Assembly: GCA_902785485.1 (NCBI GenBank)
Contig: CACZZA010000001.1
Coordinates: 1-51,222 of the forward strand
Origin: an uncultured Ruminococcus sp.
GTDB lineage: Bacteria; Bacillota; Clostridia; Oscillospirales; CAG-272
Reading direction: 5' to 3'
DNA length: 51,222 nt
The position numbers and the translations under genes were made by a program. Shown piece after piece: positions 13,296 to 35,605 of this stretch (position 1 is its first letter; each line of letters opens with the position of its first letter). A model generated the notes under the pieces. The model had not been told where the DNA came from. It did no database searches and saw only the letters and a program-made list of their open reading frames with translations.

Positions 13296-14375
13296 TTATT
13301 TTACGATCCTCTCGTACATCGAGCGGAGGACTTCGGTCGTCAGTTCGGTCGGGAAGTTGCGGAGCCTTACGGGGTTGACGGAGTTCGTCAGAGTGTCGAT
13401 GTCGGTCGCGCGGTCGGTCGACTCCGGATATCCCATCTCGAGTTCGACGAGCAGAGCCTTGAACCAATCGAGGGTGACCGGGATCTCTTTGAGCGTTGCG
13501 GACAGATACTCGATGCCTCTGTGGTCGATGCACTTTTCGGGGTGATCGAGCATATATCCCCAGACCTCGGGCAGGCAGATGGCGACAGCCGCGCCGTGCG
13601 GGATCCTGAACAGAGACGTGATCTTGTAGCTCATCGCGTGAGCTGCGGTCGTCTGGGTGATGTTGATCGCCTGACCCGCGTAGTTCGCCGCGATCATGAT
13701 CTGATTTGCCGCCTCGTCGTCGTTCTCGAAGATGTACTTCTTGTAGTTCGCGACGATCATTTCAACGGCTTTGCGGGAGTAGACCTTGCTTTCGTCCGTG
13801 GAGTTGACGGACCACCAGGATTCGATGCCCTGGCAGAGCGCGTCGAGCATGGTCGCTTTCTTCTGCCTGAGCGGCAGGGTCTTGAGGACGCTGTGTTCGA
13901 GGATGACGTAGTTCGGAATGATGCTTTCGTGCGTTACGGACTGTTTCTTGCCCTCGAAATAGATGACGGCGTAGCGGGTGGACTCGCTTCCGGTGCCGGC
14001 GGTCGTCGGGATCGCGATAAGCGGGACTCCGCTGTCCTTGTATTCCTGTTTGAGGTAGTTTTCCTTCGGGTCCATCTTGCAGTAGAGCTTGATGCACTTC
14101 GCAACGTCGATGGTGCTTCCGCCGCCGATCGCGAGGATCGTGTCGCATCCGTTCTCTCTGTAAAGGTCAACGCCCTTGCAGACCTGCTCGTAAAGTGGGT
14201 TGGGGGTGAATTCGTTGAACAGGACGAGCTTGTCTTTGTGATCGAAATAGATGTTCTTTACCTTGTCGGGCAGAAAATCGAACGCTTCGTCGCAGACAAA
14301 CAGCATTTTTTTGGGATTGAGTTCTTTGAACAGCGTTTCAAAATATTCCGCGCCGGTCTTGATGATCTGAGCCAT
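13296..14375 (-). CDS. Phosphonoacetaldehyde reductase-like iron-containing alcohol dehydrogenase
   Basis: FTPNP, IGGGSTIDVAK, IPTTAGTGSEST, DALCQGIESWWSVNST, INITQTTAAHAMSYKIT...HG, VNPVRLRN; adjacent to AEP transaminase. Confidence 0.82.
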   Translation of the reverse strand: MAQIIKTGAEYFETLFKELNPKKMLFVCDEAFDFLPDKVKNIYFDHKDKLVLFNEFTPNPLYEQVCKGVDLYRENGCDTILAIGGGSTIDVAKCIKLYCKMDPKENYLKQEYKDSGVPLIAIPTTAGTGSESTRYAVIYFEGKKQSVTHESIIPNYVILEHSVLKTLPLRQKKATMLDALCQGIESWWSVNSTDESKVYSRKAVEMIVANYKKYIFENDDEAANQIMIAANYAGQAINITQTTAAHAMSYKITSLFRIPHGAAVAICLPEVWGYMLDHPEKCIDHRGIEYLSATLKEIPVTLDWFKALLVELEMGYPESTDRATDIDTLTNSVNPVRLRNFPTELTTEVLRSMYERIVK

Positions 14376-14468
14376 GATAATTCCTTCTTTCAGTCAGATT
14401 GAATAATGTCGGTATGCAAGACGAGACCGCGCCCGGGATGCGGGCGGCGGTCTTGGGTCTTTTTATAT

Positions 14469-15602
14469 TCAGTTCTTGTAAACGACGGGGGTCTTGACTC
14501 CGCACTCTTTGAGCGCTTCCTTGAAGACTACGAAGAAGTCCTTGATGTCAGCTTCGTCGATGGCGCCGAGCGAGCAGAGACGGAAGGTGTTGGTCGTGCT
14601 GATCTTTCCGGGATAGATGGTGAAGCCTCTCTCGTAGCAGTAGTCGTGGACCTTCTCAAAGCTCCAGTTCGGATCGTCCGGATAGATCGCGGAAGAAACG
14701 AGTCCCGTTCTCCACTCGGGTCTGATGACCTGACGGAAGCCGAGTTCGTCGAGTCCGGCGTTGATGGCGTTGAATACTCTCGTATGTCTTGCCCATTTTG
14801 CTTCCTCGCCCTCTGCCCAGTACTCTTTGAGCGCCTGGATGGTCGCGTAGATGGTCTGTACGGGGGGAGTGAAGTGCATCTCGCCAGTCTTCTCGAAGTA
14901 TTCGTACTGCATATAGAGGTTGCAGTAGTAGGATCTCTTCGGGAAGTTCTTGCTCTCTACGAGCTTTGCTCTGTTGCCGACGACGAACGAAAGTCCGGTG
15001 AACGCCATAAGACCCTTCTGAGCCGACGCCATACAGAAGTCAATGTTGTCCTTCTCGATGTCGATGGGACGCATAGCGTATGCGGAAGTGGTGTCTACGG
15101 TGAAGGTAGCGCCGTATTTGTGAACGATTGCGCCGATCTCACGGATAGGGTTCATGATACCGGTTCCGGTCTCGTTGTATGTGGTGTGGACGAGCGCGAC
15201 GTCGGGGTTGTTCCTGAGGGTCTCTTCGACTTTTGCAAGGTCGGGTCTCTCGTCAACGGGGAACTGGAGGTTGATGTGCGGCAGACCGTAGTACTGGCAG
15301 ATCTCGACCGCTCTCGCGGAGTACGCGCCGTTGTTGATGACGAGCACTTTTTTGCCCTCGGGGAGAAGGCTGTTGATGCAGACGTCGATGTTGATGGTGC
15401 CGCTTCCGCAGAAGAGGACGCTGGTGTATTTGTCAAGGTCGCCGTGTACGATCTTGACGAGGTCTTCGCGCAGACCCTTCATAAGGCCGGCAAACTCTTT
15501 TTCTCTCGGGCAGATGTCCGGTACGACCTGTGCGTACTTTACGGTGTCGGTAGTGGTCGAGGGACCGGGATTGAGCAGAATGTTTCTTTTGATGGGTTCC
15601 AT
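14469..15602 (-). CDS. phnW: 2-aminoethylphosphonate aminotransferase (PLP class V; PhnW/AepZ type)
   Basis: ILLNPGP, DICPREKEF, NNGAY, ETGTG, SAQKGL, FTPPVQ, GFTIYPGK. Confidence 0.9.
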   Translation of the reverse strand: MEPIKRNILLNPGPSTTTDTVKYAQVVPDICPREKEFAGLMKGLREDLVKIVHGDLDKYTSVLFCGSGTINIDVCINSLLPEGKKVLVINNGAYSARAVEICQYYGLPHINLQFPVDERPDLAKVEETLRNNPDVALVHTTYNETGTGIMNPIREIGAIVHKYGATFTVDTTSAYAMRPIDIEKDNIDFCMASAQKGLMAFTGLSFVVGNRAKLVESKNFPKRSYYCNLYMQYEYFEKTGEMHFTPPVQTIYATIQALKEYWAEGEEAKWARHTRVFNAINAGLDELGFRQVIRPEWRTGLVSSAIYPDDPNWSFEKVHDYCYERGFTIYPGKISTTNTFRLCSLGAIDEADIKDFFVVFKEALKECGVKTPVVYKN

Positions 15603-15642
15603 GTTTGTTTCTCCTTATATTGTGTGATTTGTAATATAGTTT

Positions 15643-17163
15643 TCAGTTGTTGACCGATATTTCTTCTTTTCCGGTGAGGAAACGTCTTTGCTTGAAGTAG
15701 AAGACTACTCCGAGGGCGATCCACGCGCCGAACATTATGTAGCTCGGCAGTTCAAAGTGGACTCCGGTGAGTCCGGGGATCGGGATGAGCTGAAGTCCCA
15801 TAAAGATTATGCTGAACGCAAGGCTCGTCCACGCCATGACCTTGATGAGTTTCGTCGCGTCGCCGCAGCGTTTAGCCGTGACTATCGTGCAGAGGGACGT
15901 GAACATATATCCGATGGAAGCGCCGATGGAGCTCATATCGACGAACCAGCCGAGCGCCTCGCGTCCGAGGATCGGTCCGAGCAGGCTGACCGCGATGCAG
16001 AAAAGCATTGCGTTCTTCGGGGTGCCGTGCTTGGGATCGACTTTGCCGAACCATTTGGGGAGATAGCCTTCGCGCCCCATCGAGAGCATAAGTCTCGACG
16101 ACGCAAGATAAAATCCCATGATGCCCGAAAGCACCGCGCAGGAGACGCCGACTCCGACGAGGATCTTGCCGAAGACTCCGAGCAGGTTCTCAGCCGCTAC
16201 GAGGACTACCCATTCGCCCGCCATTACCTGTTCGGTCCAGTTTTCGACCGCGGCGGCTGCGATGGTGTTGTTTGAAGTATATACGAAGCATCCGAACGCG
16301 ATCGAGATGACCATGATGAAGGATACTTTCTTGAAAGAGAAGTTGAACTCCTCCGCTTCCTGAGGGATGGACGCGAATCCGACGTACGCCCAGGGAGTGA
16401 TGGCGAAGGTCGCGAGGATCGCGGTCATGATGCCGGAAGGTCCTTCGTGGGGCGTTACCGCCACCTGAGCCAGGTCTCCGCCTTCCTTCGCGATCTTTGC
16501 GGCGAGCGCTTTGTCGTAGTCAAAGCCCCATACGGGAGCGAGGTTGACGCCCTTCGCTTTCGAGCTGACGAGCGCCGAGACGAACAGTACGACCACGCTC
16601 GAAACGAGCAGGACCGTGAGGATCGTCTGGATGAATCCGGCTTTGTGTACGCCGATGATGTTGAGGTAGCCGAACAGGATGAGTATAGCCATCGCGAACA
16701 GCATCTCGCCGAGGTATATGTCCATTCCGGCTATAGTGTAGAGCGGGGACATCCCGAAGCTGAGGATGCGCTGTCCCGGACCGTCGAGTCCGTCGACGAT
16801 AAGTCCGATAGCCGTGCTGTTCATAGGCACGTTCGTAAGGTAAGCGACGACGAGGAACCATCCGCAGAAGAACGCCGCCTGCTTGCCGAAGCAGTTTTTC
16901 GTGAAGGCGAATTCGCCGCCCGCGACCGGGTATTTGGGTACCATGTAGGCGTACATGAAGGCGATTATCACCATCACGAGTCCGCCGAGGAGCATCGCTA
17001 TCGCGGTACCAGCCACGCCCGAATTAGGCAGGAATTTTTTGCCCGGGTTGATGAACGAGCCCCAGCCGATGATGCATCCGAAAGCGATCGCCCAGACGTA
17101 AGTCGGGGAGAGCTGCCTCTTCAGCTCGCCGTTGCCCGTACCGGTGTGCGTTTGTTTGTCCAT
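15643..17163 (-). CDS. APC family amino acid/amine permease
   Basis: WAIAFGCIIGWGSF, YPVAGGEF, WAYVGF, SSRLMLSMGREGYLP; about 12 TM; start at ATG 17163 after AAAGGA. Confidence 0.9.
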   Translation of the reverse strand: MDKQTHTGTGNGELKRQLSPTYVWAIAFGCIIGWGSFINPGKKFLPNSGVAGTAIAMLLGGLVMVIIAFMYAYMVPKYPVAGGEFAFTKNCFGKQAAFFCGWFLVVAYLTNVPMNSTAIGLIVDGLDGPGQRILSFGMSPLYTIAGMDIYLGEMLFAMAILILFGYLNIIGVHKAGFIQTILTVLLVSSVVVLFVSALVSSKAKGVNLAPVWGFDYDKALAAKIAKEGGDLAQVAVTPHEGPSGIMTAILATFAITPWAYVGFASIPQEAEEFNFSFKKVSFIMVISIAFGCFVYTSNNTIAAAAVENWTEQVMAGEWVVLVAAENLLGVFGKILVGVGVSCAVLSGIMGFYLASSRLMLSMGREGYLPKWFGKVDPKHGTPKNAMLFCIAVSLLGPILGREALGWFVDMSSIGASIGYMFTSLCTIVTAKRCGDATKLIKVMAWTSLAFSIIFMGLQLIPIPGLTGVHFELPSYIMFGAWIALGVVFYFKQRRFLTGKEEISVNN

Positions 17164-17311
17164 TTCGTGTTGTGTCCTTTCGGTGAAAAGAGTATGAAAC
17201 GTCCGCATTTTTGCTGCGTACGTAACGAACGCGAACGCCGTATTCCGACGTTCGAGCCGGAAAAAAATATCTTCCGGCTGCGTTTGTTACATAATTATTA
17301 TTGTATTTTTG

Positions 17312-17340
17312 ATTGTATCACCCGGCTCGTTTTTTGTCAA
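17312..17340 (-). promoter_or_regulatory. Sigma-A-type promoter of permease-phnW-reductase operon
   Basis: TTGACA-17 nt-TACAAT with TG extended -10 on minus strand. Confidence 0.7.
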
Positions 17341-17600
17341 GCGAAACGGGGTCAAAAAAAGGCAAAAACCGCCGTTTTTTCGCCCTTTTTTCCGACTTTG
17401 CAACGTTATTCCGCAATGATGGCAAAATAACGTTTTAACATGGTCGCGCCCGTTCCCGGAAATGGACGGGGAAAAGGAAAAAGCGGCTGTAAAAATCTCC
17501 GCTGAAGACAGAGCAAGAATTTAGCGGAGGAGAACGCAAGGGGAACCTTTTAAGGAAAGGTTCCCCTTGACCCCTCTAAACCTTTCAAAGGGGAAGGACA

Positions 17601-17910
17601 ATAAACAAGAATTTAGCGGGCTAACGACAGCCTTTACAGACGATAGCCACAGACTCTACCTCGAGCCGGCGAGCGAACGCCTATGTCAATAGCTCACCCC
17701 TCTGGGGGAGCTGTCAGCGCAGCTGACTGAGAGGGCACGCGTGCGGTTGGTTACTATTCGTAAAACCCTCTCCGTCACGGCGGGACGGACACCGCCGCGC
17801 CACCTCTCCCAAAGTGAGAGGTCCCCGTTAGTGGTCGCCTGTTGCCTCGAGGTGGAGTCTGTGGCTATCGTCTGTAAAGGCAATCGTTAGCCCGCTAAAT
17901 TCTTGTTTAT
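17601..17910. repeat. MITE/REPIN-like element with 65 bp terminal inverted repeats
   Basis: 17601-17665 and reverse complement of 17846-17910 match at 62/65 positions; interior has GC-rich REP-like hairpins; no ORF. Confidence 0.8.
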
Positions 17911-17940
17911 CTTCCCCTTCTGTGAGTTTTTTGAAAGAGC

Positions 17941-17974
17941 GCGAGAGGACTTTTTTTCAAAAAAGTCCTCTCGC
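17941..17974. repeat. Perfect hairpin (REP-like/terminator downstream of MBL-rubredoxin gene)
   Basis: GCGAGAGGACTTTTTT-TC-AAAAAAGTCCTCTCGC. Confidence 0.6.
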
Positions 17975-17998
17975 AAAAATATCTCCGTTATTCTGTTT

Positions 17999-18955
17999 TC
18001 AAGCCTTGTTGAATTTCGTCTTGTCCTGCTTGCAGCGCGGGCAGCGCCAGTCGTCGGGAAGGTCCTCGAAGGCGGTGCCGGGAGCGACGCCGCGGTCGGG
18101 GTCGCCGAGGGCGGGATCGTAGACGTAGCCGCAGATACCGCAGATATATTTTCCGGTCGCGGTCTTATAGACGATCTCGCCTACGGGGATGCTTTCGGGC
18201 GGGGAGAGAAGGTCGACCACTTTGAGCGACTCGAGGTTTTCATATCCGAGCGGTGTATGTGTCGAAAGGTAGACCGTCGGGTGGTTCGAAATGAACTCGC
18301 GCACCGTATCGAGCGTTTTTCTTGCGGCGGAGGCGTCCTCGTAGACCACCGAGAGCTTGTTTGCGTAGAGCGCCTCGTCGGTGTAGGTTATATCGCCGTG
18401 GAACATCAGAAAGAGGCCGTCGTTTTCGGCGATGACGATGCTGTTGCCTTTGGTATGCCCTTTCGCCTCGATCAGACGGACTCCGTCCGCGACGATCTGC
18501 GAGGCGGGGAAGTTGTAGTAAGGTCCGTCGGAGTAGGTCGCGCGGACGATATTCTCACCTTTGAGACCGAGCGCGTCCGCGTCTTCGGGAGAAATGTATA
18601 TTTTAGCGTTCGGAAAGGAGCGCAGCTCTCCCGTGTGGTCGTCGTGCTTGTGCGTGACGAGGATCTTCGACACCTGCTCCGGCTTGTAACCCGCGTCCGC
18701 GAGCGCCGAAACGTAGTCCTTGACGCGGCTTCCCATATATATAACGGTATTTTCGTCCGGGACGGCGTCGGGAGCTTCGAGCGGCATACCGGTATCGACG
18801 AGGATGACCTCTTTCCCGGTGTCGATAAGGAAGTTCTGAAGGGACGAACGGTAGCGCACCTTCGGGTCGAACGCGCCGGGACCCTCCTCGCCGCCGAAGG
18901 CGAAGGGCTGGGTCATAAAGCCGTTCTCGTAGAGCTTGATGGCTTTGAATTTCAT
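17999..18955 (-). CDS. Metallo-beta-lactamase-fold hydrolase fused to C-terminal rubredoxin
   Basis: [25 protein letters not shown]; C-terminus [35 protein letters not shown]. Confidence 0.9.
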
Positions 18956-18980
18956 ACGTTTTTCTCCTATATAATATATC

Positions 18981-19934
18981 TCAGTTTTTCGTGATAAGCT
19001 CGAGGTCTATCGTGAACATGGCGCTCGAGAACCTATTGGGGAGATCCCGCTCGGACGGGGATGTGATCTCACTTCCGTCCTTCATAACGAATGTGACAGA
19101 TTTGTCGGAGGCGCTTTTGAAGGCCATTTTTGGGAAGTATCTCCAAATGAGCATATATGAGTTTTTGACCCCGTCGAGGATCGTTTTCACCGTTTCCGCG
19201 GAGATCTCTTTTTTGCTTTCGTAGACCGTCGGATCGTCAAATTTTTGCTTTTTCTCGCTTATTCCCGTTCCGTCCGGGAGCAGGGTGAGCTTCGCGCTCG
19301 AAAAGCCTCCGTCTTTTCTCGTTTCGGTGAACGTCAGCGAAACGACGTCTTTGACGTCGGGAACGTCGACCTTTTCACCGGCGAGAGCGTTCTCAAAAAC
19401 TTCGATCACTTTGTGCGCGAACGGACGTTTGATTATCGGAGCCTGATTGTCGGAAAAGCCTATCCTCTCGCCGCTCGCGTATTCGATCCTGACTTCCCCT
19501 CCGAAGTTTTCCGGCAGACCGTGAGTCCTCGAGTGATAGCCGTTTTTCGCGGCGAGATCGTATTCCTTCACGATAGACACGAGACCGGGCATCACGTCGG
19601 CCTTGACGAACCCCGAAACGTCGCGGTTTGCCTCGGGCTTCCACTCGAAACCCTCGGTGTGGAGCCAGAGGAACGTTCCGGTCTCCGTTTTGACGGCAAA
19701 CGCCGATACGCGCATCAAGGGATCGCTCTCGTCGGACGTTCCGTGTACGTCGTATCCGAGCGCCGAGTCGACGTTGAACAAGGTCATCTCGTCCGAGGTA
19801 ATCGTCTTCGGAGCGCGGGTGTCGATAGAGGAGTCCGTGCCTCCGCACGCGAGGGGATCGCTTCGACTGATGATCCGGATCCCGTCGTCTTCGATGGCGG
19901 TGTCGTCTTTTTTCTTTTTGAAGAAGCTGAGCAT
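18981..19934 (-). CDS. Hypothetical protein
   Basis: 317 aa ORF with host-like codon usage, GGAGGA RBS before ATG 19934, co-oriented with MBL-rubredoxin gene. Confidence 0.7.
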
Positions 19935-19986
19935 CGCTTGTTCCTCCGTGTTTCGCCGCGGTCCGCACATCTCTCCGACGGGCGAC

Positions 19987-20102
19987 CCTTCCGCGGCAAT
20001 TTGCGAAAAGGCGGAGCCTCCCGCTGTGTTTGTATTGCGGCGGAGCCTTCCGCGGCAATTTGTGAAAAGGGCGGAGCCTCCCGCTGTGTTTGTATTGCGG
20101 CG
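19987..20102. repeat. Tandem duplication of a ~59 bp unit with ~30 bp sub-periodicity
   Basis: CCTTCCGCGGCAATTTG(C/T)GAAAAGG(G)CGGAGCCTCCCGCTGTGTTTGTATTGCGGCG at 19987 and 20046. Confidence 0.85.
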
Positions 20103-20301
20103 TTTTGTATTTTTCTTATGTTATTATACAATATCCAAACTCGAAAATCAACCCCAACCACGGTCGCGATCATGGTCTTTTCCGTGCCCGACTCGCCCGA
20201 AAATGAAAACTTTTTGTGAATAAAACGAAAATAATACATTTCGTTTTTTGCCGATTTAACTGAAAAAATTGATTTTCCATAATGATCCTCAGGCTTTTTT
20301 G

Positions 20302-20330
20302 TTGACAAGCCTGTCCGCGCGTGCTATAAT
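20302..20330 (+). promoter_or_regulatory. Consensus sigma-A promoter of polysaccharide locus
   Basis: TTGACA-17 nt-TATAAT with TG extended -10. Confidence 0.85.
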
Positions 20331-20396
20331 GAATAGAGTTAATGTGAAAAAAATATCACTTATATATTTTAGAATAAGATTTTAGGAGTAATCGAT

Positions 20397-21698
20397 ATGT
20401 CTTTTAAAGCCGATCCGTCACTGAAACCTTTTGAAAAACACATTTATCTCAGCAGTCCGACTATGCACGGCGAGGAAGCCGAGTATATGATGGAGGCGTA
20501 TAACACCAACTGGATGAGTACGGTCGGAAAGAACATCAACGAGATCGAAGCGAGAATCGCGTCTCTCGCCGGAGTCAGATACGCCGTGGCGCTCAGCTGC
20601 GGGACTGCCGCTCTCCATCTCGCGACCAGACTCGCCGGAGAAAGGCTGTACGGACAGGCGCGTCCCAACGCGGGAACGCTCGCGGGTAAAACCGTGTTTG
20701 CAAGCGATGTAACGTTCGACGCGTCGATCAACCCTATCGCATACGAGGACGGCAACGCCGTTTTTATCGATACAGAGTACGACACCTGGAATATGGACCC
20801 CGCAGCGCTCGAAAAGGCGTTTGAACTTTATCCCGATACAAAGCTCGTGGTCGTAGCGCATCTTTACGGCACTCCCGGAAAGATGGACGAGATACGAAAG
20901 ATATGCGACGCGCACGGCGCGCTCATCGTTGAGGACGCGGCGGAAAGCTTCGGCGCGAAATACCTCTCGGACGGAGTCTGGAAGGAGACGGGCGCGCTCG
21001 GAGACTATAACTGTATCTCCTTCAACGGAAATAAGATCATCACCGGATCGAGCGGAGGAATGTTCCTTACCGACAGCAAGGAGGACGCCGACAAGGTCAA
21101 AAAATGGAGTACTCAATCGCGTGAGGACGCGCCGTGGTATCAGCACGAGGAAATAGGCTTCAACTATCGGATGAGCAACGTCATCGCCGGGGTCGTCCGC
21201 GGTCAGCTTCCTTATCTCGATACTCATATCGCGCAGAAAAAAGCGATCTACGAGCGCTACAAGGAAGGCTTCAAGGACCTTCCGGTAAAGATGAATCCTT
21301 ACGACGAAACAAAGTCCGTACCGAACTTCTGGCTGAGTTGTATGATAATTGATCCCGAGGCGATGTGTCCTCAGGTCAGGGACGACTCGAAGGCGCTCTA
21401 TACTCCCGAAAGCGGGAAAAGCTGTCCGACAGAGATATTGCAGACTCTTTCGGCTTACAACGCCGAAGGACGCCCGATCTGGAAGCCGATGCACCTTCAG
21501 CCGATCTACCGCGCGCATCCGTTCGTCACAACGAACGGCAACGGCAGAGCCCGGAGCAACGCCTACATTCAGGAGACCGGTATGCGAGACGTCGGAGCCG
21601 ATATCTTCTCCCGCGGTCTCTGCCTGCCCTCGGACAACAAAATGACGCCCGAACAGCAGGACGTTATAATAGAATTGATCAAGGATTGTTTCAAATAA
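20397..21698 (+). CDS. DegT/DnrJ/EryC1/StrS sugar aminotransferase (UDP-4-keto-6-deoxy-HexNAc type)
   Basis: LSSPTMHG, SCGTAALHLA, EDAAESFG, SFNGNKIITGSSGG, GFNYRMSN, RPIWKPMHLQP, GLCLPS. Confidence 0.92.
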   Translation: MSFKADPSLKPFEKHIYLSSPTMHGEEAEYMMEAYNTNWMSTVGKNINEIEARIASLAGVRYAVALSCGTAALHLATRLAGERLYGQARPNAGTLAGKTVFASDVTFDASINPIAYEDGNAVFIDTEYDTWNMDPAALEKAFELYPDTKLVVVAHLYGTPGKMDEIRKICDAHGALIVEDAAESFGAKYLSDGVWKETGALGDYNCISFNGNKIITGSSGGMFLTDSKEDADKVKKWSTQSREDAPWYQHEEIGFNYRMSNVIAGVVRGQLPYLDTHIAQKKAIYERYKEGFKDLPVKMNPYDETKSVPNFWLSCMIIDPEAMCPQVRDDSKALYTPESGKSCPTEILQTLSAYNAEGRPIWKPMHLQPIYRAHPFVTTNGNGRARSNAYIQETGMRDVGADIFSRGLCLPSDNKMTPEQQDVIIELIKDCFK

Positions 21699-21699
21699 G

Positions 21700-22440: not shown

Positions 22441-22458
22441 TCTACGGCGGTATTATAT

Positions 22459-23358: not shown

Positions 23359-23390
23359 TCCGTACAGATATGTTTGAGGAGATTTTGACG

Positions 23391-24206: not shown

Positions 24207-24230
24207 TTCAGTTTTTTTGCAGAGGTTAGC

Positions 24231-25517: not shown

Positions 25518-25568
25518 TAAGATTGCTATTCTTTTATTATTTGTTGTGAGAGTTGAATTGAGAACTGA

Positions 25569-26807
25569 ATGAAAATGAAAATTTGTCAAATAAACTGTGT
25601 TTACGGTTCAGGAAGTACTGGTTCTATCGTTGAAGAGATTCATACGGAATTGATAAAAAGAAATATCAAATCTATTGTGATAGTTCCAAAAACAAAATCT
25701 AAAGATAAAGGCGTATACACTGTATCAAACCGATTACTCAATGACCTCAGTGCGTTTTATCGACGATTTTTCGGACGCCAGTTCGACGGAGCTTTTGTTC
25801 AGACGAACCGTATTTTGAATATTTTAAAAAAAGAAAAACCGGATTTAGTCCATCTTCATTGTATTAATGGCAATGATATAAATGTTTACAGGCTGATGAA
25901 CTATCTCAGCAGCAATAAAATAAAAACGGTTTTGACTCTTCACGCCGAATTCCCGTATACAGGAGGGTGCGCTCACGCCTATAGTTGTCAAAAATGGCTG
26001 GATGGTTGCGGTGATTGCTATCGATTTAAGAAAGCGACTAATTCATGGATTTTCGATCGCACAGCACGCACGTGGAAAAAACAAAAAGATTGTTTCGGAA
26101 AATTCGATGACAATAAACTCGTAATAGTTTCTGTTTCTCCATGGTTGAATTCCAGAGCAGGAATATCTCCAATGCTGACGAAATTTAAAAAGATAGTTAT
26201 CTTAAACGGATGCGATACATCGATATTTTATCCGAGAAAAACTAATAACTGGAGAGAAAAATTAAATATTTCTCCAGATAAGATTATTGTTGCTCATATT
26301 ACAGCGTCATTTAATCCGGATTCAAACGACTCCAAGGGAGGACGTTTCATATACCAACTTGCCGAGCAGTGCAAAAATGATAATATTGTTTTTGTTGTTG
26401 CGGCTAACTCAGGTAAAGTGGATACTCCGCCAGATAATTTGCTGTATGTGGGTAGAGCCCCGTCTGCAGAAAGTCTTGCTGAATTGTACTCAGAAGCTTC
26501 TTGCACTGTAGTGACCAGTAAACGCGAAACATTCAGTATGGTCCTAGCTGAAAGTATATGCTGCGGGACGCCTGTTGTGGCATTTAAGGCAGGAGGACCT
26601 GAAAGTATTTCAGTACAGGACTTTACTGATTTTGCAGAATACGGAGACATTGAGGAACTGTATAAAAAACTTATGATGATGGTGGAAGAACATCATAATC
26701 GGCAAAAAATAGAAGAATCCGGGAAGAATAAATATGATAAATCTCGTATGGTTTCTGAATATATCAATGAGTATTTTGAGTTATTCAACTGTGCTGACAA
26801 GTCTTGA
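25569..26807 (+). CDS. GT4 glycosyltransferase (WcaC-like)
   Basis: QINCVYGSGSTG, PDLVHLH, LTLH...TGGCAH, ETFSMVLAESICCGTPVV. Confidence 0.88.
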   Translation: MKMKICQINCVYGSGSTGSIVEEIHTELIKRNIKSIVIVPKTKSKDKGVYTVSNRLLNDLSAFYRRFFGRQFDGAFVQTNRILNILKKEKPDLVHLHCINGNDINVYRLMNYLSSNKIKTVLTLHAEFPYTGGCAHAYSCQKWLDGCGDCYRFKKATNSWIFDRTARTWKKQKDCFGKFDDNKLVIVSVSPWLNSRAGISPMLTKFKKIVILNGCDTSIFYPRKTNNWREKLNISPDKIIVAHITASFNPDSNDSKGGRFIYQLAEQCKNDNIVFVVAANSGKVDTPPDNLLYVGRAPSAESLAELYSEASCTVVTSKRETFSMVLAESICCGTPVVAFKAGGPESISVQDFTDFAEYGDIEELYKKLMMMVEEHHNRQKIEESGKNKYDKSRMVSEYINEYFELFNCADKS

Positions 26808-26835
26808 AATATGAAAAAAAGTGGGGATTTCTTTA

Positions 26836-27921
26836 ATGAGTATCGAAATTGACAGACCTGTAAGTGTTGGTATTGCCACATTTACTGATGCTTTGAATTA
26901 TGGGGCTTTGCTTCAATCCTACGCTTTGGGAAGTTTTTTATCATCATTGGGCTATCAAGTATTCTACGTTAACAGAAATAATGAAGGGAAAGTAAGAAAC
27001 AATAAAAAAAATATTATCAAACGATTGTTTTATGCCCTGATTGTAGAAAAAAGAAAATCAGAGAAAAATGATCAATTTGAAAGATTCAAATCTGAGAATT
27101 ATTCATTTGTGAAAAGTGCTAACGAAGTTGATATTTTGGTATGCGGAAGCGATCAGATTTGGAATCCGGAGATAACTAAAGGTTTCGATCAGTTATTTTT
27201 TGGAGGGGCATGCAACTTTTCTGTAGCTTACGCAGCAAGCTGTGGTGATTTGTCTGTGCTTATGAACAAGACAGATGAGTTTTTTTTAAAACTTTCAAAC
27301 TTTGATTCAGTTTCCAGCCGCGAGGAAGATCTTTCGCGGTTTATCACAGTTAATACAGGACTGGACTGTCCAGTTGTTTGCGATCCGGTATTTTTGCCAG
27401 ACTTGAGTGTTTACAAAGAAATCGAAAAAGAAAGCCTTGAAGAAAAAAGATATCTTTTGATTTATCAGATGAATAAAGATAAGTTTCTTTACAAGCTTGC
27501 AAAGTATATTTCTTCAAAGTTTCATCTCGATATCGTAGAGATAAATAATGATCTATACGACTGCAGGCTGATTAAAAGCAATTGTTATTATTCTGTTTCT
27601 CTTGAAACCTTTTTATCGCTTATTGACCATTCTTCGTTCGTTATAACCAACTCCTTCCATGGAACGGCATTATCTATTTTATATAAAAAGCCTTTTTTCA
27701 GTGTTAAGAGCAACAAGAGAAATTCGAGAATATCAAGTCTGTGCAACTCCCTTGGACTCGGCGACAGATTTATCGATAGCGGAATAAAGCTCAGTTCGTT
27801 GGATCTGTCGGCAATCGACTATGGAGAAGTTTCAAAAAAAGTCGAATTATTTTCCGATAGTTCAAAACAATATTTGAAAGAAACATTATTAAAGATATCG
27901 GAGAAGATAAATGTCAAATAG
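26836..27921 (+). CDS. Polysaccharide pyruvyl transferase family protein
   Basis: NYGALLQSYAL, CGSDQIWNP, YAAS, SSRE, CDPVFL, TNSFHGTALS. Confidence 0.88.
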   Translation: MSIEIDRPVSVGIATFTDALNYGALLQSYALGSFLSSLGYQVFYVNRNNEGKVRNNKKNIIKRLFYALIVEKRKSEKNDQFERFKSENYSFVKSANEVDILVCGSDQIWNPEITKGFDQLFFGGACNFSVAYAASCGDLSVLMNKTDEFFLKLSNFDSVSSREEDLSRFITVNTGLDCPVVCDPVFLPDLSVYKEIEKESLEEKRYLLIYQMNKDKFLYKLAKYISSKFHLDIVEINNDLYDCRLIKSNCYYSVSLETFLSLIDHSSFVITNSFHGTALSILYKKPFFSVKSNKRNSRISSLCNSLGLGDRFIDSGIKLSSLDLSAIDYGEVSKKVELFSDSSKQYLKETLLKISEKINVK

Positions 27922-29350
27922 GCTACAAAAAGAAAAGAAACTGATCAAAAATACGATTTGGTATTTTATGGGATCATTTTCTTCAAAAGCAATTTCTTTT
28001 TTACTTGTTCCGCTATATACGAGTATTCTTACAACAGCAGAATACAGTATTTCAGATATAATTTCGACAACTGTAAGTCTTTCATTACCGTTCTTTACTC
28101 TTATTATAAGTAGTGCGGTATTTAGATTTGTGCTTGACAAAAAAGGCAATTACGATAAGATCTTCACACTCGGTTTTTCAACAGTTATAATTGGTTTCAT
28201 ACCTCTTGCAATTATTTCTTTCGTGGTATTTATGTGTATTGACACGTTAAGAAATTATTGGTTGTATTTTGTTCTATACTATATTCTCAGCGCCATTGCC
28301 ACCCTAGAGTCTGAGTTTCTAAAGGGACAGGAAAAGGTCAAGACTGTTGCCTTGGTGGGTTTTATTTATACAGTTGTCGTTATTGGGCTTAATATCTTAT
28401 TCCTTGTAGTATTGAAAATGAGGATAGAAGGATATCTAATTGCTCATCTCATCAGCTCAGGCGTTTCCGTTATAATGTATGCTATCCTCGGCAAAACACA
28501 TCGATATATAATAGATCCGCGTAAAATAGGCCCTGATCTGCGGAAAGAAATGTACAAGTATTCGATCCCGATGATTCCAAATTCTGCCATGTGGTGGATT
28601 ACAAACTCGTCGGATAGATATTTTGTTTCCGCGATGGTCTCCATCTCTGCAAACGGACTCCTGTCGGTGTCTTACAAAATTCCGTCGCTTCTTGCGGTGT
28701 TTATTAGTATTTTTCATAGTGCGTGGGAACTGTCGGTCGTAGAGGATTTTGAAAAAGACAGCGGAAAAGCTTTCTTCAACGAAATATATCAAAAATACAT
28801 CGAATTCAATATTATTATAACAGCTTTTTTGGTAATAACTTCGAAACTTTTGGGATCTTTTTTATACGCATCAGATTTTTTTGAGGCGTGGAAATATTCC
28901 GCGATTCTCGTCGTTGGTTATTCTTTCCATTCTATGGCAGGTTTTTTGGGAACTGTATTTACTACTGTAAAAAAAACCAAACTGCTTTTTATATCAACTT
29001 TCATCGGTGCCGGATCAAACCTTATTTTGAACTTCGTTCTTATCAATTTCTTCGGTATCATCGGTGCGGTTATCGCAACAGTAGTAAGTTACTTTTTAAC
29101 GTTTGCTGTCAGATTGATCGGAGCTAAAAAACTGATCACGCTCACAACGAAATTGACAAAAAATGTGCTTTCTTTCTGTCTTATTATTGTGGAAGCGATT
29201 CTTGTTTTCTTTGATACGTTTTACGGATTTATAGTTGCCGGCATTATTTTTGCTGCACTTATTGTAGTCAACAGAGCTTTCTTTACTTATGTATTTAATA
29301 TAATATTCACAATGTTAAAGAAATTAATAAAACGCAGGAGTGAAAAATGA
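27911..29350 (+). CDS. wzx: Wzx-type polysaccharide flippase
   Basis: LIKNT...FLLVPLYT, YSIPMIPN..WWITNSSDR; about 14 TM. Confidence 0.88.
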   Translation: MSNRLQKEKKLIKNTIWYFMGSFSSKAISFLLVPLYTSILTTAEYSISDIISTTVSLSLPFFTLIISSAVFRFVLDKKGNYDKIFTLGFSTVIIGFIPLAIISFVVFMCIDTLRNYWLYFVLYYILSAIATLESEFLKGQEKVKTVALVGFIYTVVVIGLNILFLVVLKMRIEGYLIAHLISSGVSVIMYAILGKTHRYIIDPRKIGPDLRKEMYKYSIPMIPNSAMWWITNSSDRYFVSAMVSISANGLLSVSYKIPSLLAVFISIFHSAWELSVVEDFEKDSGKAFFNEIYQKYIEFNIIITAFLVITSKLLGSFLYASDFFEAWKYSAILVVGYSFHSMAGFLGTVFTTVKKTKLLFISTFIGAGSNLILNFVLINFFGIIGAVIATVVSYFLTFAVRLIGAKKLITLTTKLTKNVLSFCLIIVEAILVFFDTFYGFIVAGIIFAALIVVNRAFFTYVFNIIFTMLKKLIKRRSEK

Positions 29351-31074
29351 AAAATGTAGTCTTCATCGTTATGGATTCGGTGTTCGAAGAAATACTTAAT
29401 GCTAACGATAACGTTTGTCCGTTCATCAATTCGATCAGAGGCAAATCTTTGTATTTTTCTAATGTGTATTCTCAAGGCCCATATACGGAAGCAGGAACAA
29501 AAGGACTTCTATGCAGCGAAGACACGTTAGACAACGAGGCGTATCTTCATAGGTATTCAAACGCTAAGAACTTTATCTCAAGTATTTTCAAAGACAACGG
29601 ATACAAAACAACAAGTTTGATTTACCCGACTACTTTGTATAACAAAAAGATAATAGAAAAACTGGACAACATTTTCTTTTCTTCTGTATTTCTGCCGGAT
29701 GTGTTCTGGAACCAAAAGTTGCTTTTTTATAAAAGCGTTAAAGAAGAGAACGGACTCGACGAAAGTGATTACGTCAGAATATTCGGAATACTTGAAGATG
29801 TATTTGATTTTTGGCTTTATTCTCTCGATAGGAAAGAGCACCCTGATAACTTTAAGATGCTCGATAAATATAATTCTGGATTTCCTTGGGAAGATCTATA
29901 TAGATCCGTAGAGAACGAAAGGGAAAAATACCAATACGATAAGAAGGCATATGTAGATTCATTGCTTTTGTCGAATAACAACTTTTTACAGACAAAAACG
30001 TTTGCCGAGACTGATATTTTGAAAAACAACGCCTTGAAAAAAGCAATAAAAAAGAGACGTGCTTTTTGCCTGAAATTGTCTTTTTTTCAGCTGTTCCGCG
30101 AAGTAAAGAATTTGAACTTGTTGTTCTCGTTGACAAAGAAAGAAAAGTCAAAGTCAGAGAGAAAAAAGCTCAGAAAAGCGTGGCTTACCTCAGTAAAACG
30201 GGCATTCGATATATTTACTGTCAAGAAAAGCAAAGATTTCAAACTGTTACTGTCGGCAGGGGCTCAATTGGATTTTGCCGCTGATTATCTTATCAACAAT
30301 CAAAAAGAACCTCAGTTTTTGATGGTGCACATAGAAGAACCTCATTATTATAACACATTTTTCTCTTACGACTGTGAAGACATTGATAAGATCGTGGGGG
30401 AGTTTGACTATGCAGACGAGTACTTGCGGTCCGTCAAAAAGACCGGATACAGCGGATTTGCTTACTATGACCTGTCGCTGAGATATGTTGATTTACAGAT
30501 CAAGAAACTGTTCGATAAGTTGAAAGCCAACGGGGCTCTTGAAAATACCATAGTGGTTTTGACTTCTGACCATGGTTCGTCATATACTGGGAGGTTCATC
30601 AGGCCGAGAAGTGTAATCAATTTTCATAAAGAAAATTATCACATTCCTTTTATCATATACGGAGACAATATTTCCGGAAAGACAGTCGACAAACTGTCTT
30701 CAAATTTGGATATTATTCCGACGCTTCTAAAATTTCTGAATCTTTCTTCACCAACCGATCTTTCCGGAAAAGATATTCTAAGCACAGAAGCAAGGGATCA
30801 TATATTGATCGAATTTATGGGGGCGGGGTGCCCGGATATCCATTTGAAGCCTGCTTGGATAGCCGCAAAAAGTAATTATTGTCAAGTGTCTTATATTGGC
30901 TCGGTCTTGAAAGAATTCAAGTGTGACAATATCGATGCGGTATACGATTTGAAGGAAGACCCCGATCAGTATAATAATTTGAATGGAAGAAACACGGGAA
31001 TAGAAGCAGAAAGGCTCATCGGCTGTATCAAGGCAAGACTCGAACAGTTAAGAAAAGAGTATAGCAGCGAATGA
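29347..31074 (+). CDS. Alkaline-phosphatase/sulfatase superfamily protein with Thr nucleophile
   Basis: NVVFIVMDS, SQGPYTEAG, EPH, LTSDHG, HIPFII, DIIPTLL, YDLKEDP. Confidence 0.75.
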   Translation: MKNVVFIVMDSVFEEILNANDNVCPFINSIRGKSLYFSNVYSQGPYTEAGTKGLLCSEDTLDNEAYLHRYSNAKNFISSIFKDNGYKTTSLIYPTTLYNKKIIEKLDNIFFSSVFLPDVFWNQKLLFYKSVKEENGLDESDYVRIFGILEDVFDFWLYSLDRKEHPDNFKMLDKYNSGFPWEDLYRSVENEREKYQYDKKAYVDSLLLSNNNFLQTKTFAETDILKNNALKKAIKKRRAFCLKLSFFQLFREVKNLNLLFSLTKKEKSKSERKKLRKAWLTSVKRAFDIFTVKKSKDFKLLLSAGAQLDFAADYLINNQKEPQFLMVHIEEPHYYNTFFSYDCEDIDKIVGEFDYADEYLRSVKKTGYSGFAYYDLSLRYVDLQIKKLFDKLKANGALENTIVVLTSDHGSSYTGRFIRPRSVINFHKENYHIPFIIYGDNISGKTVDKLSSNLDIIPTLLKFLNLSSPTDLSGKDILSTEARDHILIEFMGAGCPDIHLKPAWIAAKSNYCQVSYIGSVLKEFKCDNIDAVYDLKEDPDQYNNLNGRNTGIEAERLIGCIKARLEQLRKEYSSE

Positions 31075-31120
31075 GCGGTAAGAATGAGAAGAATACGTTT
31101 GTTTCAATTGAGGTCGGTAT

Positions 31121-32323
31121 ATGGAACTGAAAAAAGTATTGCTTTACTTGATATTGATAATGTCGACATTTTATGCATTTATTCAGGCGGCCGGAATTAT
31201 CAGGATTGATGTTCTTTTGATTATAATGTTTGTTATGACGGTCGTTCTGCTTTTTATTGCAAAAAAAGTTCGTTTCAATAACACAGCGGCACTGTATCTG
31301 TTAGTTTTGCTGTTGATGTGTATCAGTCTTTTTTATACGGTCGACACAGAACTTACCGTGACATACATCTACGTTATGGTCTACGGATTTGTTTTGTTTG
31401 TTTGTTGTTTGTCTCATAAAGACGCTCCCGATTGCCTTATCAAGGTACTGCTTGCTTTTTCTCTGATAAACGTTTTTGCCACAATTTTTTCTATTTTAGC
31501 GGGCGACTCTTTCACCAAGTTCGTTTCCGCTTTATTTCCGAAATTGAATACTAAGTTTGAGTTTGCATCGGGAATGTTGGGTCAAACCGGGACAAACTCA
31601 TATGTTATCGTTTATTCCTGTTTATATTATTGGATAAATATAATTGCCTCTTCGGAAAAGAAAACAAAACATCTGATTTTTCTTCTCTTATCTGTATTCG
31701 CTTTGCTTTTGACGGGAAAAAGAGGACCTCTGATATGGCTTGTTGCAACTGCTATGATAGTTGATTTAGTCTTTCAAAATCATACAAAAGCTTCAGACCT
31801 GTTAAAAAGCGTTTTCAAATACATAGGAATTATTCTTGTGATTGTCTTGTTCTTTGTTACAGTTGATAATATTGACATAGTAAGCAACGCTCTGTCCAGG
31901 TTTATTGTTGATCAGGAGAAAGACTTCTCATCAGGAAGATTCAAACTGTACGAAAAAGGGATTCAATATATTAAGGATAACTTTTTTTTCGGGGTCGGAG
32001 CCGGCGCTTATAACCATTTTGGACAAGGAGTTCATAATGACTATTTGCAAATCATAGCAGAAAACGGGATCTTTAGTTCTCTGTTGTTTTTTGCCTTTAT
32101 ACTGTTAAATCTAAAAAACGCTTTTCGAACTTTCAAAAAAACCTATAATAAAATAATACCGTTGTATTTTTTGGGATTACAGATTTTTATGGCTCTTAAT
32201 GCACTTACGGGGACATCATATCTTCATTATGGGTTATTTTTCATTTACATTGAAGTTTGCTCGTGCAACTATGTTTTGTATTACCATGATGAAATCACAG
32301 AGATAAAAGCTGCTTCGCAATGA
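31121..32323 (+). CDS. Wzy/O-antigen ligase-like polymerase
   Basis: About 10-11 TM; LLTGKRG, SSGR, FGVGAG, HNDYLQIIAENGI. Confidence 0.82.
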   Translation: MELKKVLLYLILIMSTFYAFIQAAGIIRIDVLLIIMFVMTVVLLFIAKKVRFNNTAALYLLVLLLMCISLFYTVDTELTVTYIYVMVYGFVLFVCCLSHKDAPDCLIKVLLAFSLINVFATIFSILAGDSFTKFVSALFPKLNTKFEFASGMLGQTGTNSYVIVYSCLYYWINIIASSEKKTKHLIFLLLSVFALLLTGKRGPLIWLVATAMIVDLVFQNHTKASDLLKSVFKYIGIILVIVLFFVTVDNIDIVSNALSRFIVDQEKDFSSGRFKLYEKGIQYIKDNFFFGVGAGAYNHFGQGVHNDYLQIIAENGIFSSLLFFAFILLNLKNAFRTFKKTYNKIIPLYFLGLQIFMALNALTGTSYLHYGLFFIYIEVCSCNYVLYYHDEITEIKAASQ

Positions 32324-32338
32324 TGGAGCCAAAGAAAA

Positions 32339-32366
32339 ACAGACCAATATTATGTTATTGGTCTGT
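32339..32366. terminator. Hairpin between convergent wzy and cytidylyltransferase genes
   Basis: ACAGACCAATA / TATTGGTCTGT stem; T-tract follows on minus strand. Confidence 0.55.
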
Positions 32367-32422
32367 AAAAAAATAATAAAGAATAATTCATATGACATTG
32401 TGAAAAACGGCAAGTTGAGTTT

Positions 32423-33316: not shown

Positions 33317-33376
33317 AATGTATTTTCCTTTCATTGTGTTCAAAAAATGACTCTGAATGTTGTTTTACTGAACACT

Positions 33377-33468
33377 ATTATACCTCTGAAAAATAATTTG
33401 TCAATAGAAAAATGTGTCAACTCAGTGCTCAATAAAGTCGTTGACAAATATTCCATAACAGTTATAAT
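33377..33468. promoter_or_regulatory. Back-to-back divergent sigma-A promoters (cytidylyltransferase / licD2)
   Basis: Minus: TTGACA(33404)-16-TATAAT(33382); plus: TTGACA(33441)-16-TATAAT(33463). Confidence 0.7.
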
Positions 33469-33608
33469 AATAAATGAACCGGTGTTTATGTCAGGAGAAC
33501 AGCATTAAAAATGTATCGGAAAAGGGAAACGTCGATTTCAGTTTTCCAATGACTGCATTTTTCGATAATATTTATGCGGCATTTTTTCTTCAGCACAAGG
33601 AGCAATAA

Positions 33609-34481
33609 ATGGAAAAAGAACTCTATAAGACCAACGAAGATCTGAAAGAACTTCAGGAAATAACGTTCAAAATACTGATGTATTTAAAGGGAATCTGTAA
33701 AGAGTTGGGACTAAGGTATTTTCTTGCGTACGGCACCCTGATAGGCGCGATAAGACACCACGGTTTCGTGCCGTGGGACGACGATATCGACGTTTGGATG
33801 CCGAGAGAGGATTTTATGATCCTTTTGGACTATCTTTGTAAAAACGAAGACGAGAGATACACCGTATCTACCGGCAAATACAAGATCAAAGGGGAATGGC
33901 CCGAAAAACTCCAGATCAAGATTCTGGACAAGTACGTCGAGGTCGAAAGAGGGTGGGAAAAGAAAGGTCATTTTATATCGTCACACCCGTGGATCGACGT
34001 TTTTGCGCTTGACAACGCCCCCGACAAGCGCGAGGATTTTATTAAAAAATTCAGAAAAAAACGCGTCTGGTATCAGCTCTGCAGAAGCAAATTTTTTAAT
34101 ACGGATCTTAATAATATCATGGGAACGATAGACCGGACAGTCTATTTTATGTACAATAAAATGCATCTGCTCCGCCACGTTTTGAACTATGATAAGGCGG
34201 GAGAACGTTTGTTCGAAGCGGTGACCGCGTGCAGAAACGATCCGTCCGGAAAGCAGTATTTCTGTAACGCCGCGGTATACGTCCACAAGATCGACAAGTG
34301 CTTCTTCGACAAAGAATGGTTCGCCGATTCGATAGAAGTTCCGTACGGTGACGGGATGTTCTCGGTTCCTTCGGGATACGACGCCATTTTGACCAAGATC
34401 TACGGAGATTACATGACGCCTCCGCCGCTTGAAGCACGTACCGGGGGACACTTCGGTAAGATACTTTCAAGAAAAGATTAA
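33609..34481 (+). CDS. licD: Second LicD family phosphotransferase
   Basis: YGTLIGAIRHHGFVPWDDDID, WIDVFALD, YGDYMTPPP. Confidence 0.92.
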   Translation: MEKELYKTNEDLKELQEITFKILMYLKGICKELGLRYFLAYGTLIGAIRHHGFVPWDDDIDVWMPREDFMILLDYLCKNEDERYTVSTGKYKIKGEWPEKLQIKILDKYVEVERGWEKKGHFISSHPWIDVFALDNAPDKREDFIKKFRKKRVWYQLCRSKFFNTDLNNIMGTIDRTVYFMYNKMHLLRHVLNYDKAGERLFEAVTACRNDPSGKQYFCNAAVYVHKIDKCFFDKEWFADSIEVPYGDGMFSVPSGYDAILTKIYGDYMTPPPLEARTGGHFGKILSRKD

Positions 34482-35594: not shown

Positions 35595-35605
35595 GGGAGA
35601 ATAAT

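Follow-up and report, generated by a model that had tools for sequence, protein, structure and literature searches.

We examined a 51,222-nucleotide stretch of DNA (the window), which is contig C1 (CACZZA010000001.1) of a genome assembly of an uncultured Ruminococcus sp. (GCA_902785485.1; 2.34 Mb in 210 contigs, completeness 94.3%, contamination 2.2%). Its minus strand carries adjacent genes for an APC-superfamily permease, an AepZ-type 2-aminoethylphosphonate (AEP) transaminase and an iron-type alcohol dehydrogenase (Fe-ADH), and a nearby polysaccharide region carries genes for a LicC-like cytidylyltransferase and two LicD-family phosphotransferases (Table 1). A preliminary description, made from these letters alone, had proposed that the cell scavenges environmental AEP, optionally converts it to 2-hydroxyethylphosphonate (HEP) and displays either compound on a surface glycan, all without synthesizing the carbon–phosphorus (C–P) bond. 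The six genes on which that proposal rested are all present, intact and of the families it named, but the genome as a whole points elsewhere: C1 would carry scattered components of a phosphonyl-tailoring (Pnt) pathway that works de novo, with an AEP branch and probably an HEP branch, a reading to which we assign a probability of about 0.8.

The assembly contains a single phosphoenolpyruvate (PEP) mutase gene, pepM, on contig C23 (TIGR02320, 403–405 bits; cut-off 319.55). Its 431-residue product has an N-terminal cytidylyltransferase-like domain (PF01467) and carries the PEP mutase (Ppm) motif EDKTGLKKNS, of the EDKXXXXXNS type, at residue 259. Directly after it lies ppd (TIGR03297, 445 bits; cut-off 312.5), likewise in single copy and on C23 only. 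Because the genome holds both genes, which the preliminary description had itself named as what would speak against it if found elsewhere in the genome, the inference of salvage without C–P bond synthesis fails; nor would the pathway be invisible to pepM-based surveys in this genome, as had been suggested. The neighbours of pepM–ppd are an enolase gene, a helix-turn-helix (HTH) regulator and a type I restriction system, with no transaminase gene found among them; since aepZ on C1 is the only match above cut-off, and C23 offers no transaminase, the two loci complement each other, each gene being single-copy. The absences reported for the window itself were borne out. Genome-wide, PhnX gave nothing above cut-off (best 25 bits) and PhnJ and PhnA gave no match in family searches (phnY was not searched for), and the choline kinase family PF01633 had 0 matches, with two candidates scored (APH-type kinases and licB were not searched for). 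Tblastn searches for phnX with proteins from two related genomes (G028 and G001) matched the genome solely through their PhnW half, at aepZ on C1. Mis-binning of C23 was considered and set aside: its tetranucleotide correlation to the genome mean (0.96, versus 0.942 for C1) does not single it out and is compatible with one organism, though not decisive. Beside pepM–ppd (L004, 447–7240) we also observed the R, M and S genes of an EcoAI-family type I restriction system, together with a protein bearing a CAP12/Pycsar-type TIR domain.

The transaminase on C1 matched the PhnW–AepZ model TIGR03301 over profile positions 1–354 of 355 (453.9 bits; cut-off 360.8) and did not qualify for TIGR02326, the model of catabolic PhnW (286.5 bits; cut-off 400.8). 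To place it, we used an AepZ-seeded scan with one genome per species, which returned 559 relatives; the best 80 loci (AepZ identity 84–90%) were retained and scored by tblastn with the window and C23 proteins (E ≤ 1e-10, a single segment covering at least half of the query; some loci are short contigs, and part of the misses is due to contig ends). Among these 80 loci, pepM lay directly downstream of aepZ in 79, ppd was present in 72 and a LicC-like gene in 71, with LicD in 13, the permease in 5 and Fe-ADH in 2. The usual cassette order was HTH-LicC-like gene, (permease), aepZ, cytidylyltransferase–pepM fusion and ppd, and the closest AepZ relatives therefore appear to sit in biosynthetic cassettes. 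Record titles were mainly of rumen and gut Clostridia, with Treponema, Schwartzia and Muribaculaceae also represented. Across the Ruminococcus, Lachnospiraceae, Saccharofermentans, Treponema, Schwartzia and Muribaculaceae records (L021–L100), AepZ was 84–90% identical and Ppd merely 59–65% identical to that of C23, a contrast that points to horizontal spread of the cassette or, alternatively, to highly uneven constraint.

The cytidylyltransferase carries a MarR-type HTH at residues 12–59, kept in 63 cassette orthologues of about 296 residues, and may combine ligand-sensing regulation with catalysis in a single polypeptide; its gene is divergent from that of the second LicD across 265 bp. Its best solved relative is LicC of Streptococcus pneumoniae (Spn-LicC, 1JYK; full-length alignment, E 2.7e-28), and Tde-PntC (6PD1) matches its N-terminal 112 residues only (E 1.8e-11). 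In Tde-PntC, E104 and E196 contact the AEP amine; the corresponding residues of Spn-LicC, D105 and D192, are smaller (Rice et al. 2019, PMC6697681). The C1 enzyme has Glu178 and Glu265 at these positions (pocket positions were hand-indexed on the LicC alignment, with the numbering checked on D105, R129, D192 and E216), and it keeps the LicC aromatic residue W136 as W209, much as Ari-PntC retains the aromatic box (PMC6697681). The 80 AepZ loci held 63 LicC-like matches of at least 55% identity, of which 59 were aligned and four fragmentary open reading frames left out; in these HTH-bearing orthologues, Glu occurs at position 178 in 59 of 59 and at position 265 in 58 of 59 (Ser in L031). They lie directly upstream of aepZ–pepM, that is, in the near-ppm context that Rice et al. 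use as a criterion for PntC (PMC6697681); the C1 gene itself lies outside that context, its pepM being on another contig. A second, HTH-less type found between pepM and ppd has Glu at 178 in 9 of 10 rows and Asp at 265 in 8 of 10, and the Glu/Glu signature therefore appears to be valid only within the HTH-bearing group. From orthology and pocket residues together, we infer that the C1 cytidylyltransferase is of the PntC type, with AEP as its predicted substrate.

The distribution of this enzyme among 398 class-mate genomes (E limits of 1e-50 for the cytidylyltransferase, 1e-60 for Fe-ADH and 1e-80 for the permease) is consistent with that assignment. A homologue was found in 11 genomes, 8 with PepM and 3 (G037, G345 and G236) without, and the four PepM-positive genomes with a cytidylyltransferase of at least 55% identity all have Glu. 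The three PepM-negative homologues are 56–62% identical to the C1 enzyme and have D, S and G, respectively, at position 265; within about 10 kb of them there is no permease, aepZ or pepM, LicD1-type neighbours are also missing, and none of the three genomes has a choline kinase above cut-off. They were considered as possible salvage carriers and, lacking permease, aepZ and the second Glu, read as a different substrate class. In G345 (L164, 9506–11707), a galactokinase-like GHMP kinase gene precedes that of the HTH-nucleotidyltransferase, which is 56% identical, has Ser as its second pocket residue and probably belongs to a different phospho-substrate pathway.

Both LicD proteins match PF04991 (163.5 and 137.9 bits; cut-off 22.6) and are the genome's only matches to it; for both, the top NCBIfam match is cholinephosphotransferase, under its cut-off. 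CDP-glycerol and CDP-ribitol were considered as LicD donors and rejected, as the PF01467 matches in the genome are CoaD, NadD, the PepM fusion and a protein on contig C6, with one IspD and no TagD or TarI candidate. The preliminary description's proposal that a PntC-type enzyme and LicD serve display on a Wzx/Wzy glycan thus gains in silico support from the enzyme type, the LicD genes and the lack of a detected choline kinase. The part of the polysaccharide locus at 25.6–32.3 kb has a GC content of 36%, and the sugar-nucleotide set beyond the second LicD gene presumably makes L-FucNAc. Within the glycan locus (29347–31074, plus strand) lies a gene for a 575-residue protein of the sulfatase/alkaline-phosphatase superfamily, with weak LtaS, YejM and MCR-like matches, which could add a further phospho-substituent outside the membrane.

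For the Fe-ADH (PF00465, 131.9 bits; PF25137, 83.4 bits), gene context supports assignment as a putative PhpC-type enzyme acting between phosphonoacetaldehyde (PnAA) and HEP, as the preliminary description had supposed. PhpC homologues from biosynthetic as well as degradative clusters interconvert the two compounds (Piazza et al. 2026, PMC13576164). Among the class-mates, homologues occupied 14 places in 13 genomes: 11 places adjoin pepM, mostly in the order PF12804–PF01467–PepM triple fusion, Fe-ADH and Ppd, often with one to three LicD genes near; one (G108) has the ADH fused to a di-cytidylyltransferase and pepM on another contig; and two (G132 and G356:C12) adjoin phnX or a phnX–phnW fusion. 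The contexts come from retrieved loci except for one of the 14 (G157), a 2-kb contig with a 671-residue PepM open reading frame beside the ADH; one locus (L146) repeats the arrangement of another (L040) and is not an independent case. A separate kin sample of 40 genomes gave four matches. In G028 and G001, which lack PepM, the ADH is paired with a phosphonatase (345 and 300 bits; cut-off 220); in G040 it closes a polysaccharide operon, and ppd and a triple-fused PepM are encoded at other places in the genome; the fourth match, in G029, is 35% identical. In a 17-row ADH tree, the C1 enzyme groups with three pepM-adjacent enzymes at moderate support (81/89), its nearest neighbour being that of G175 (59% identity), and three PhnX-linked enzymes form a separate clade (98/96). 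Three of the ADH frames (L143 of G108, L145 of G104 and L147 of G192; 752, 612 and 614 residues) abut cytidylyltransferase-like matches and look like ADH–nucleotidyltransferase fusions.

A possible partner for the Fe-ADH lies on contig C6, where its neighbours are housekeeping genes (those for CTP synthase, glutamine synthetase III, the shikimate pathway and a dockerin protein). This protein, with both a PF12804 and a PF01467 domain (Table 1), is 60–65% identical to the N-terminal halves of triple-fused PepM proteins elsewhere; with that of L040, whose gene overlaps an ADH gene (product 45% identical to the C1 Fe-ADH) by 4 bp, it aligns without gaps over 373 residues at 60% identity. The PF01467 domain of Fom1 makes CMP-HEP (cited in PMC6697681). 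The genome thus appears to keep branch-specific parts of two modules, HTH-PntC, aepZ and permease for AEP and Fe-ADH and the di-cytidylyltransferase for HEP, with one PepM–Ppd pair and two LicD proteins.

The permease is rare. It has a homologue in only 1 of the 398 class-mates (G400, 68% identity), where 1.4 kb that includes a UDP-glucose dehydrogenase gene separates it from the cassette downstream, and its scores fall below the cut-offs of specific models (TIGR00909, 118 versus 556.8 bits; ethanolamine permease, 48.8 versus 381.75 bits). A permease-seeded scan of metagenome contigs yielded eight loci, two of which (L117 and L123) begin at or within the permease and are uninformative upstream. 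In all six others an HTH-PntC-like gene carrying Glu/Glu directly precedes the permease, as a PntC-like gene does in 4 of the 5 AepZ-seeded loci that have one; aepZ–pepM–ppd follows downstream in L118 and L119 and is lacking there in the other four (L116, L120, L121 and L122). At L120 (6993–10985), a gene for a TagF-like (PF04464) transferase comes after the pair of HTH-PntC-like gene and permease; aepZ–pepM–ppd is absent within 7 kb, and a non-ribosomal peptide synthetase gene lies upstream. The permease thus seems tightly linked to the activating enzyme and not to the C–P-forming enzymes, and because of this link it resembles an importer of the substrate that is activated; we regard its being a phosphonate importer as possible, at odds of roughly one in three. 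A literature search brought up no paper on an APC-type AEP transporter; in the accessible text of PMC6697681 the words transporter and salvage do not occur, and in that of PMC8942020 transporter occurs once, for PhnCDE.

On C1, the minus-strand order of cytidylyltransferase, permease and aepZ is that of the relatives' cassette, with ~15 kb (17209–32422, a stretch that takes in the glycan-locus portion with 36% GC) separating the first two genes and with Fe-ADH and TnpV in the position of pepM–ppd. We read the arrangement as an AepZ cassette that was probably broken at two points. The permease probably starts at the ATG at 17163, which is preceded by AAAGGA. The claim that the operon has its own promoter agrees with a TG-extended TTGACA-17-TACAAT site 5′ of the permease, a consensus match only; a scan gave 11 promoter-like sites versus 3.7 ± 2.3 in shuffled sequence. 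An Rfam scan of 12000–21000 (E up to 0.1) found no match to a riboswitch or leader ahead of the operon. In 12501–13300, searches for remains of pepM, ppd or phnX gave matches at chance level only, and TnpV fills the space; TnpV, between Fe-ADH and the terminator-like hairpin, hints at mobile-element rearrangement of the operon on this side. An 81-nt inverted repeat pair, 88% complementary and 158 nt apart, occupies 17596–17915, past the operon promoter and before the following gene; because blastn of 17561–17950 against the genome gave 84 matching segments on many contigs (77–90% identity over 270–384 nt on at least 10 contigs), we call it a dispersed repeat resembling a miniature inverted-repeat transposable element, and it has no Rfam match. 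Beyond it, 17999–18955 (minus strand) encodes a metallo-beta-lactamase-fold protein with a C-terminally fused rubredoxin, and the neighbouring gene (18981–19970) has no Pfam match.

Table 1 Features of contig C1 and of one related gene on contig C6.
Feature	Position	Strand	Basis or content
Terminator-like hairpin, 12 pairs, 8 GC, T-rich tail, closes the transcription unit	12716-12743	-	Hairpin prediction
TnpV (mobile-element protein), directly 3′ of Fe-ADH	12819-13142	-	PF14198, 115.6 bits
PhpC-type Fe-alcohol dehydrogenase, candidate phosphonoacetaldehyde reductase/HEP dehydrogenase	13296-14375	-	PF00465 + PF25137
AepZ-type 2-aminoethylphosphonate transaminase (predicted), class-V aminotransferase	14469-15602	-	TIGR03301
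APC-superfamily permease	15643-17208	-	PF13520, 136.2 bits; PF00324, 81.2 bits
Promoter-like site TTGACA-17-TACAAT, TG-extended, 5′ of permease	17312-17340	-	Consensus match only, 11/12
Polysaccharide genes	20397-32323	+	DegT aminotransferase, Bac_transf priming transferase, GT2, LicD no. 1, 428-aa protein, GT4, pyruvyl transferase, Wzx-type flippase, sulfatase/LtaS-like protein, Wzy-like polymerase
LicD no. 1, phosphotransferase family	23346-24206	+	PF04991
Winged HTH (wHTH; MarR-like)–LicC-like cytidylyltransferase, 306 aa	32423-33343	-	PF00483, E 9.7e-12; PF12804, E 1.4e-8
LicD no. 2, phosphotransferase family, divergent from the cytidylyltransferase gene	33609-34481	+	PF04991
Sugar-nucleotide genes	34557-39182	+	Polysacc_synt_2 dehydratase, UDP-GlcNAc 2-epimerase family, NTP_transf_5, epimerase + Polysacc_synt_C
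Di-cytidylyltransferase PF12804 + PF01467, 380 aa	Contig C6, 13607-14749 (L110:9608-10750)	-	Family matches

Taken together, these genes outline a pathway whose substrates, transport direction and glycan acceptor we predict from gene presence, family membership, orthology and gene context. PepM and Ppd from C23 would convert PEP to PnAA, which AepZ from C1 would aminate to AEP; the wHTH-LicC-like enzyme would act as a PntC and make CMP-AEP, and a LicD transferase would attach AEP to the repeating unit of the Wzx/Wzy polysaccharide. A second branch, opened by the co-transcribed PhpC-type Fe-ADH, may lead from PnAA to HEP, which could be activated by a PF01467-type domain, either that on PepM or that of the PF12804–PF01467 protein on C6, and then be transferred by LicD. 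The APC permease would be a cassette accessory, most likely importing AEP or a close analogue for direct activation. On this evidence a de novo AEP pathway is highly probable, and an HEP branch, that is, dual AEP and HEP decoration, is slightly favoured.

Several observations weigh against this interpretation. In an assembly of 210 contigs the pathway occupies three, and C23 or C6 could be another organism's; tetranucleotide composition does not single out either contig, yet is weak evidence. The Glu signature is not universal, as the Asp at 265 in the HTH-less rows attests. LicD-family enzymes are able to use other CDP-activated donors, and a 29-row LicD tree has long branches and no split by AEP or HEP context, with neither C1 LicD in a well-supported group. 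The Fe-ADH fails the curated TIGR03405 model (Phn_Fe-ADH/PsrA; 142.2 bits against a cut-off of 423.7), as do those of its pepM- or phnX-linked relatives that were scored (134.9 to 156.5 bits), and its second-closest relative by identity adjoins phnX.

Four other accounts of the same genes were weighed. The pure salvage originally proposed, in which no C–P bond is made and imported AEP, optionally converted to HEP through AepZ and Fe-ADH, is displayed through cytidylyltransferase and LicD, can point to a C1 stretch without pepM and ppd, to an operon that joins a permease to two interconverting enzymes, to phosphonates needing no kinase (PMC6697681) and to the Glu/Glu-bearing PntC–permease pairs that have no aepZ directly downstream in four of the six informative loci. 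It is nevertheless very improbable given single copies of pepM and ppd in the same assembly, complementing the sole aepZ; moreover, it does not require AepZ, yet the closest AepZ relatives lie in biosynthetic cassettes, and the cytidylyltransferases of the three PepM-negative class-mates no longer have the second Glu, nor is a permease gene found within 10 kb of them. A classical Lic pathway, with the cytidylyltransferase making CDP-choline, the LicD proteins adding phosphocholine and the AepZ operon unrelated, would suit the full-length match to Spn-LicC, the conserved aromatic W209 and the sub-cut-off cholinephosphotransferase matches of both LicD proteins. We consider it just as improbable, since the genome has no PF01633 choline kinase, both LicC pocket positions have Glu for Asp, the orthologues adjoin aepZ–pepM–ppd and Ari-PntC also keeps the aromatic box, so that W209 is no argument for choline (PMC6697681). 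If AEP were instead imported as a nitrogen source, transaminated for its amino group and the resulting PnAA detoxified to HEP, with no link to the glycan, the order of permease, transaminase and ADH would look like a unit for uptake and conversion; degradative clusters with PhpC-type ADHs are known (PMC13576164), and four genomes (G028, G001, G132 and G356:C12) pair the ADH with phnX. Such scavenging is improbable here, with genome searches giving no phnX, phnA or phnJ for phosphate release, a transaminase that scores under the TIGR02326 cut-off and over that of TIGR03301, and an ADH that groups with pepM-adjacent enzymes, apart from the phnX-linked clade.

A mixed model, in which the Pnt pathway works de novo and the permease also brings AEP (or HEP) directly to PntC, as LicB does in the Lic pathway but free of a kinase, deserves more weight, and supplementary AEP uptake of this kind is plausible, if short of an even chance. 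The permease follows a PntC-like gene directly in the six of six permease-seeded and four of five AepZ-seeded loci, the pair precedes a TagF-like transferase in place of aepZ–pepM–ppd in L120, and AEP, an amino-acid-like zwitterion, would be a plausible APC substrate. AEP was first found in rumen material. For that first find, the accessible text of PMC8942020 gives the date, 1959, only. On the other side, the best family matches of the permease are generic, it could equally import the amino donor or export a product, it is missing from 75 of the 80 cassettes and hence dispensable, and L120 and L121 are known as contigs only, so that their pepM may lie elsewhere. A bolder composite, which we consider unlikely, would make PntC and the APC permease a two-gene AEP salvage module (import and direct cytidylyl activation, with no kinase) that is able to stand without aepZ–pepM–ppd, as in L116, L120, L121 and L122, and that has been pulled apart here and supplements de novo synthesis, one PepM–Ppd pair feeding both AEP and HEP, for each of which there would be a separate cytidylyltransferase and LicD. 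It is for this permease, and for the PntC–permease loci elsewhere, that display invisible to pepM-based surveys can still be hypothesized.

The de novo reading makes the genome a fragmented member of the known Pnt pathway, in which C–P synthesis would be followed by activation with a cytidylyl group and by LicD-mediated transfer to a Wzx/Wzy polysaccharide. The pathway described by Rice et al. (PMC6697681) shares with it PepM, Ppd and an AEP transaminase, a LicC-like CMP-AEP enzyme, LicD-like phosphotransferases and glycan genes, as well as the PepM–PF01467 fusion and Glu at both pocket positions, as in Tde-PntC; it differs in that here the genes occupy three separate loci and are accompanied by an APC permease and a PhpC-type ADH. 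Unlike Tde-PntC, the C1 enzyme has an N-terminal MarR-like wHTH and is closer in sequence to Spn-LicC. The Lic pathway (LicB, LicA, LicC and LicD; Streptococcus pneumoniae and Haemophilus) follows a similar scheme, in which a substrate is imported, activated by a cytidylyltransferase and transferred by LicD to a glycan; here, by contrast, no choline kinase was found, Glu replaces the LicC Asp, the permease is of the APC type and the substrate would be made de novo. PhpC/FomC-type reductases share the Fe-ADH fold and have homologues beside pepM–ppd (HEP synthesis) or phnX (HEP breakdown) (PMC13576164), and Fom1, which makes CMP-HEP, likewise has PF01467 fused to PepM (PMC6697681); unlike in those systems, the ADH here is apparently co-transcribed with AepZ, lies far from pepM and scores below TIGR03405, and no antibiotic-type tailoring genes were seen. 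The HEP exopolysaccharide of Stackebrandtia and the AEP capsule of Bacteroides fragilis (cited in PMC8942020) are precedents for a phosphonate substituent on an extracellular polysaccharide, from which the present case differs in that both head groups would possibly derive from one PepM–Ppd pair in one organism, the product being predicted from genes. Li and Horsman (PMC8942020) treat AEPT and PhpC as competing branch points and leave mixed neighbourhoods out of their 'AEPT' class, and it is for this reason that dual AEP and HEP decoration is something we infer here. The wHTH–PntC fusion, the PntC-coupled APC permease and the joining of AepZ and a PhpC-type reductase in one unit appear to be undescribed in the main texts of PMC6697681, PMC13576164 and PMC8942020, to the extent accessible; the cluster lists of the latter two may hold relatives.

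These results suggest that neighbourhood-based phosphonate surveys would misclassify this genome, in which C23 shows no branch-point enzyme and C1 shows a transaminase and a reductase but no pepM, and the split of the pathway between these loci therefore calls for whole-genome bookkeeping in such surveys. The occurrence of the HTH-PntC AEP cassette, at 84–90% AepZ identity, across records labelled Clostridia, Treponema, Schwartzia and Muribaculaceae further suggests that gut and rumen bacteria frequently exchange this surface-decoration trait. Finally, the recurrent pairing of a PntC-like gene with an APC permease provides a concrete candidate for phosphonate uptake coupled to display and, if the pair does act in this way, phosphonate display would be possible in cells that make no C–P bond.

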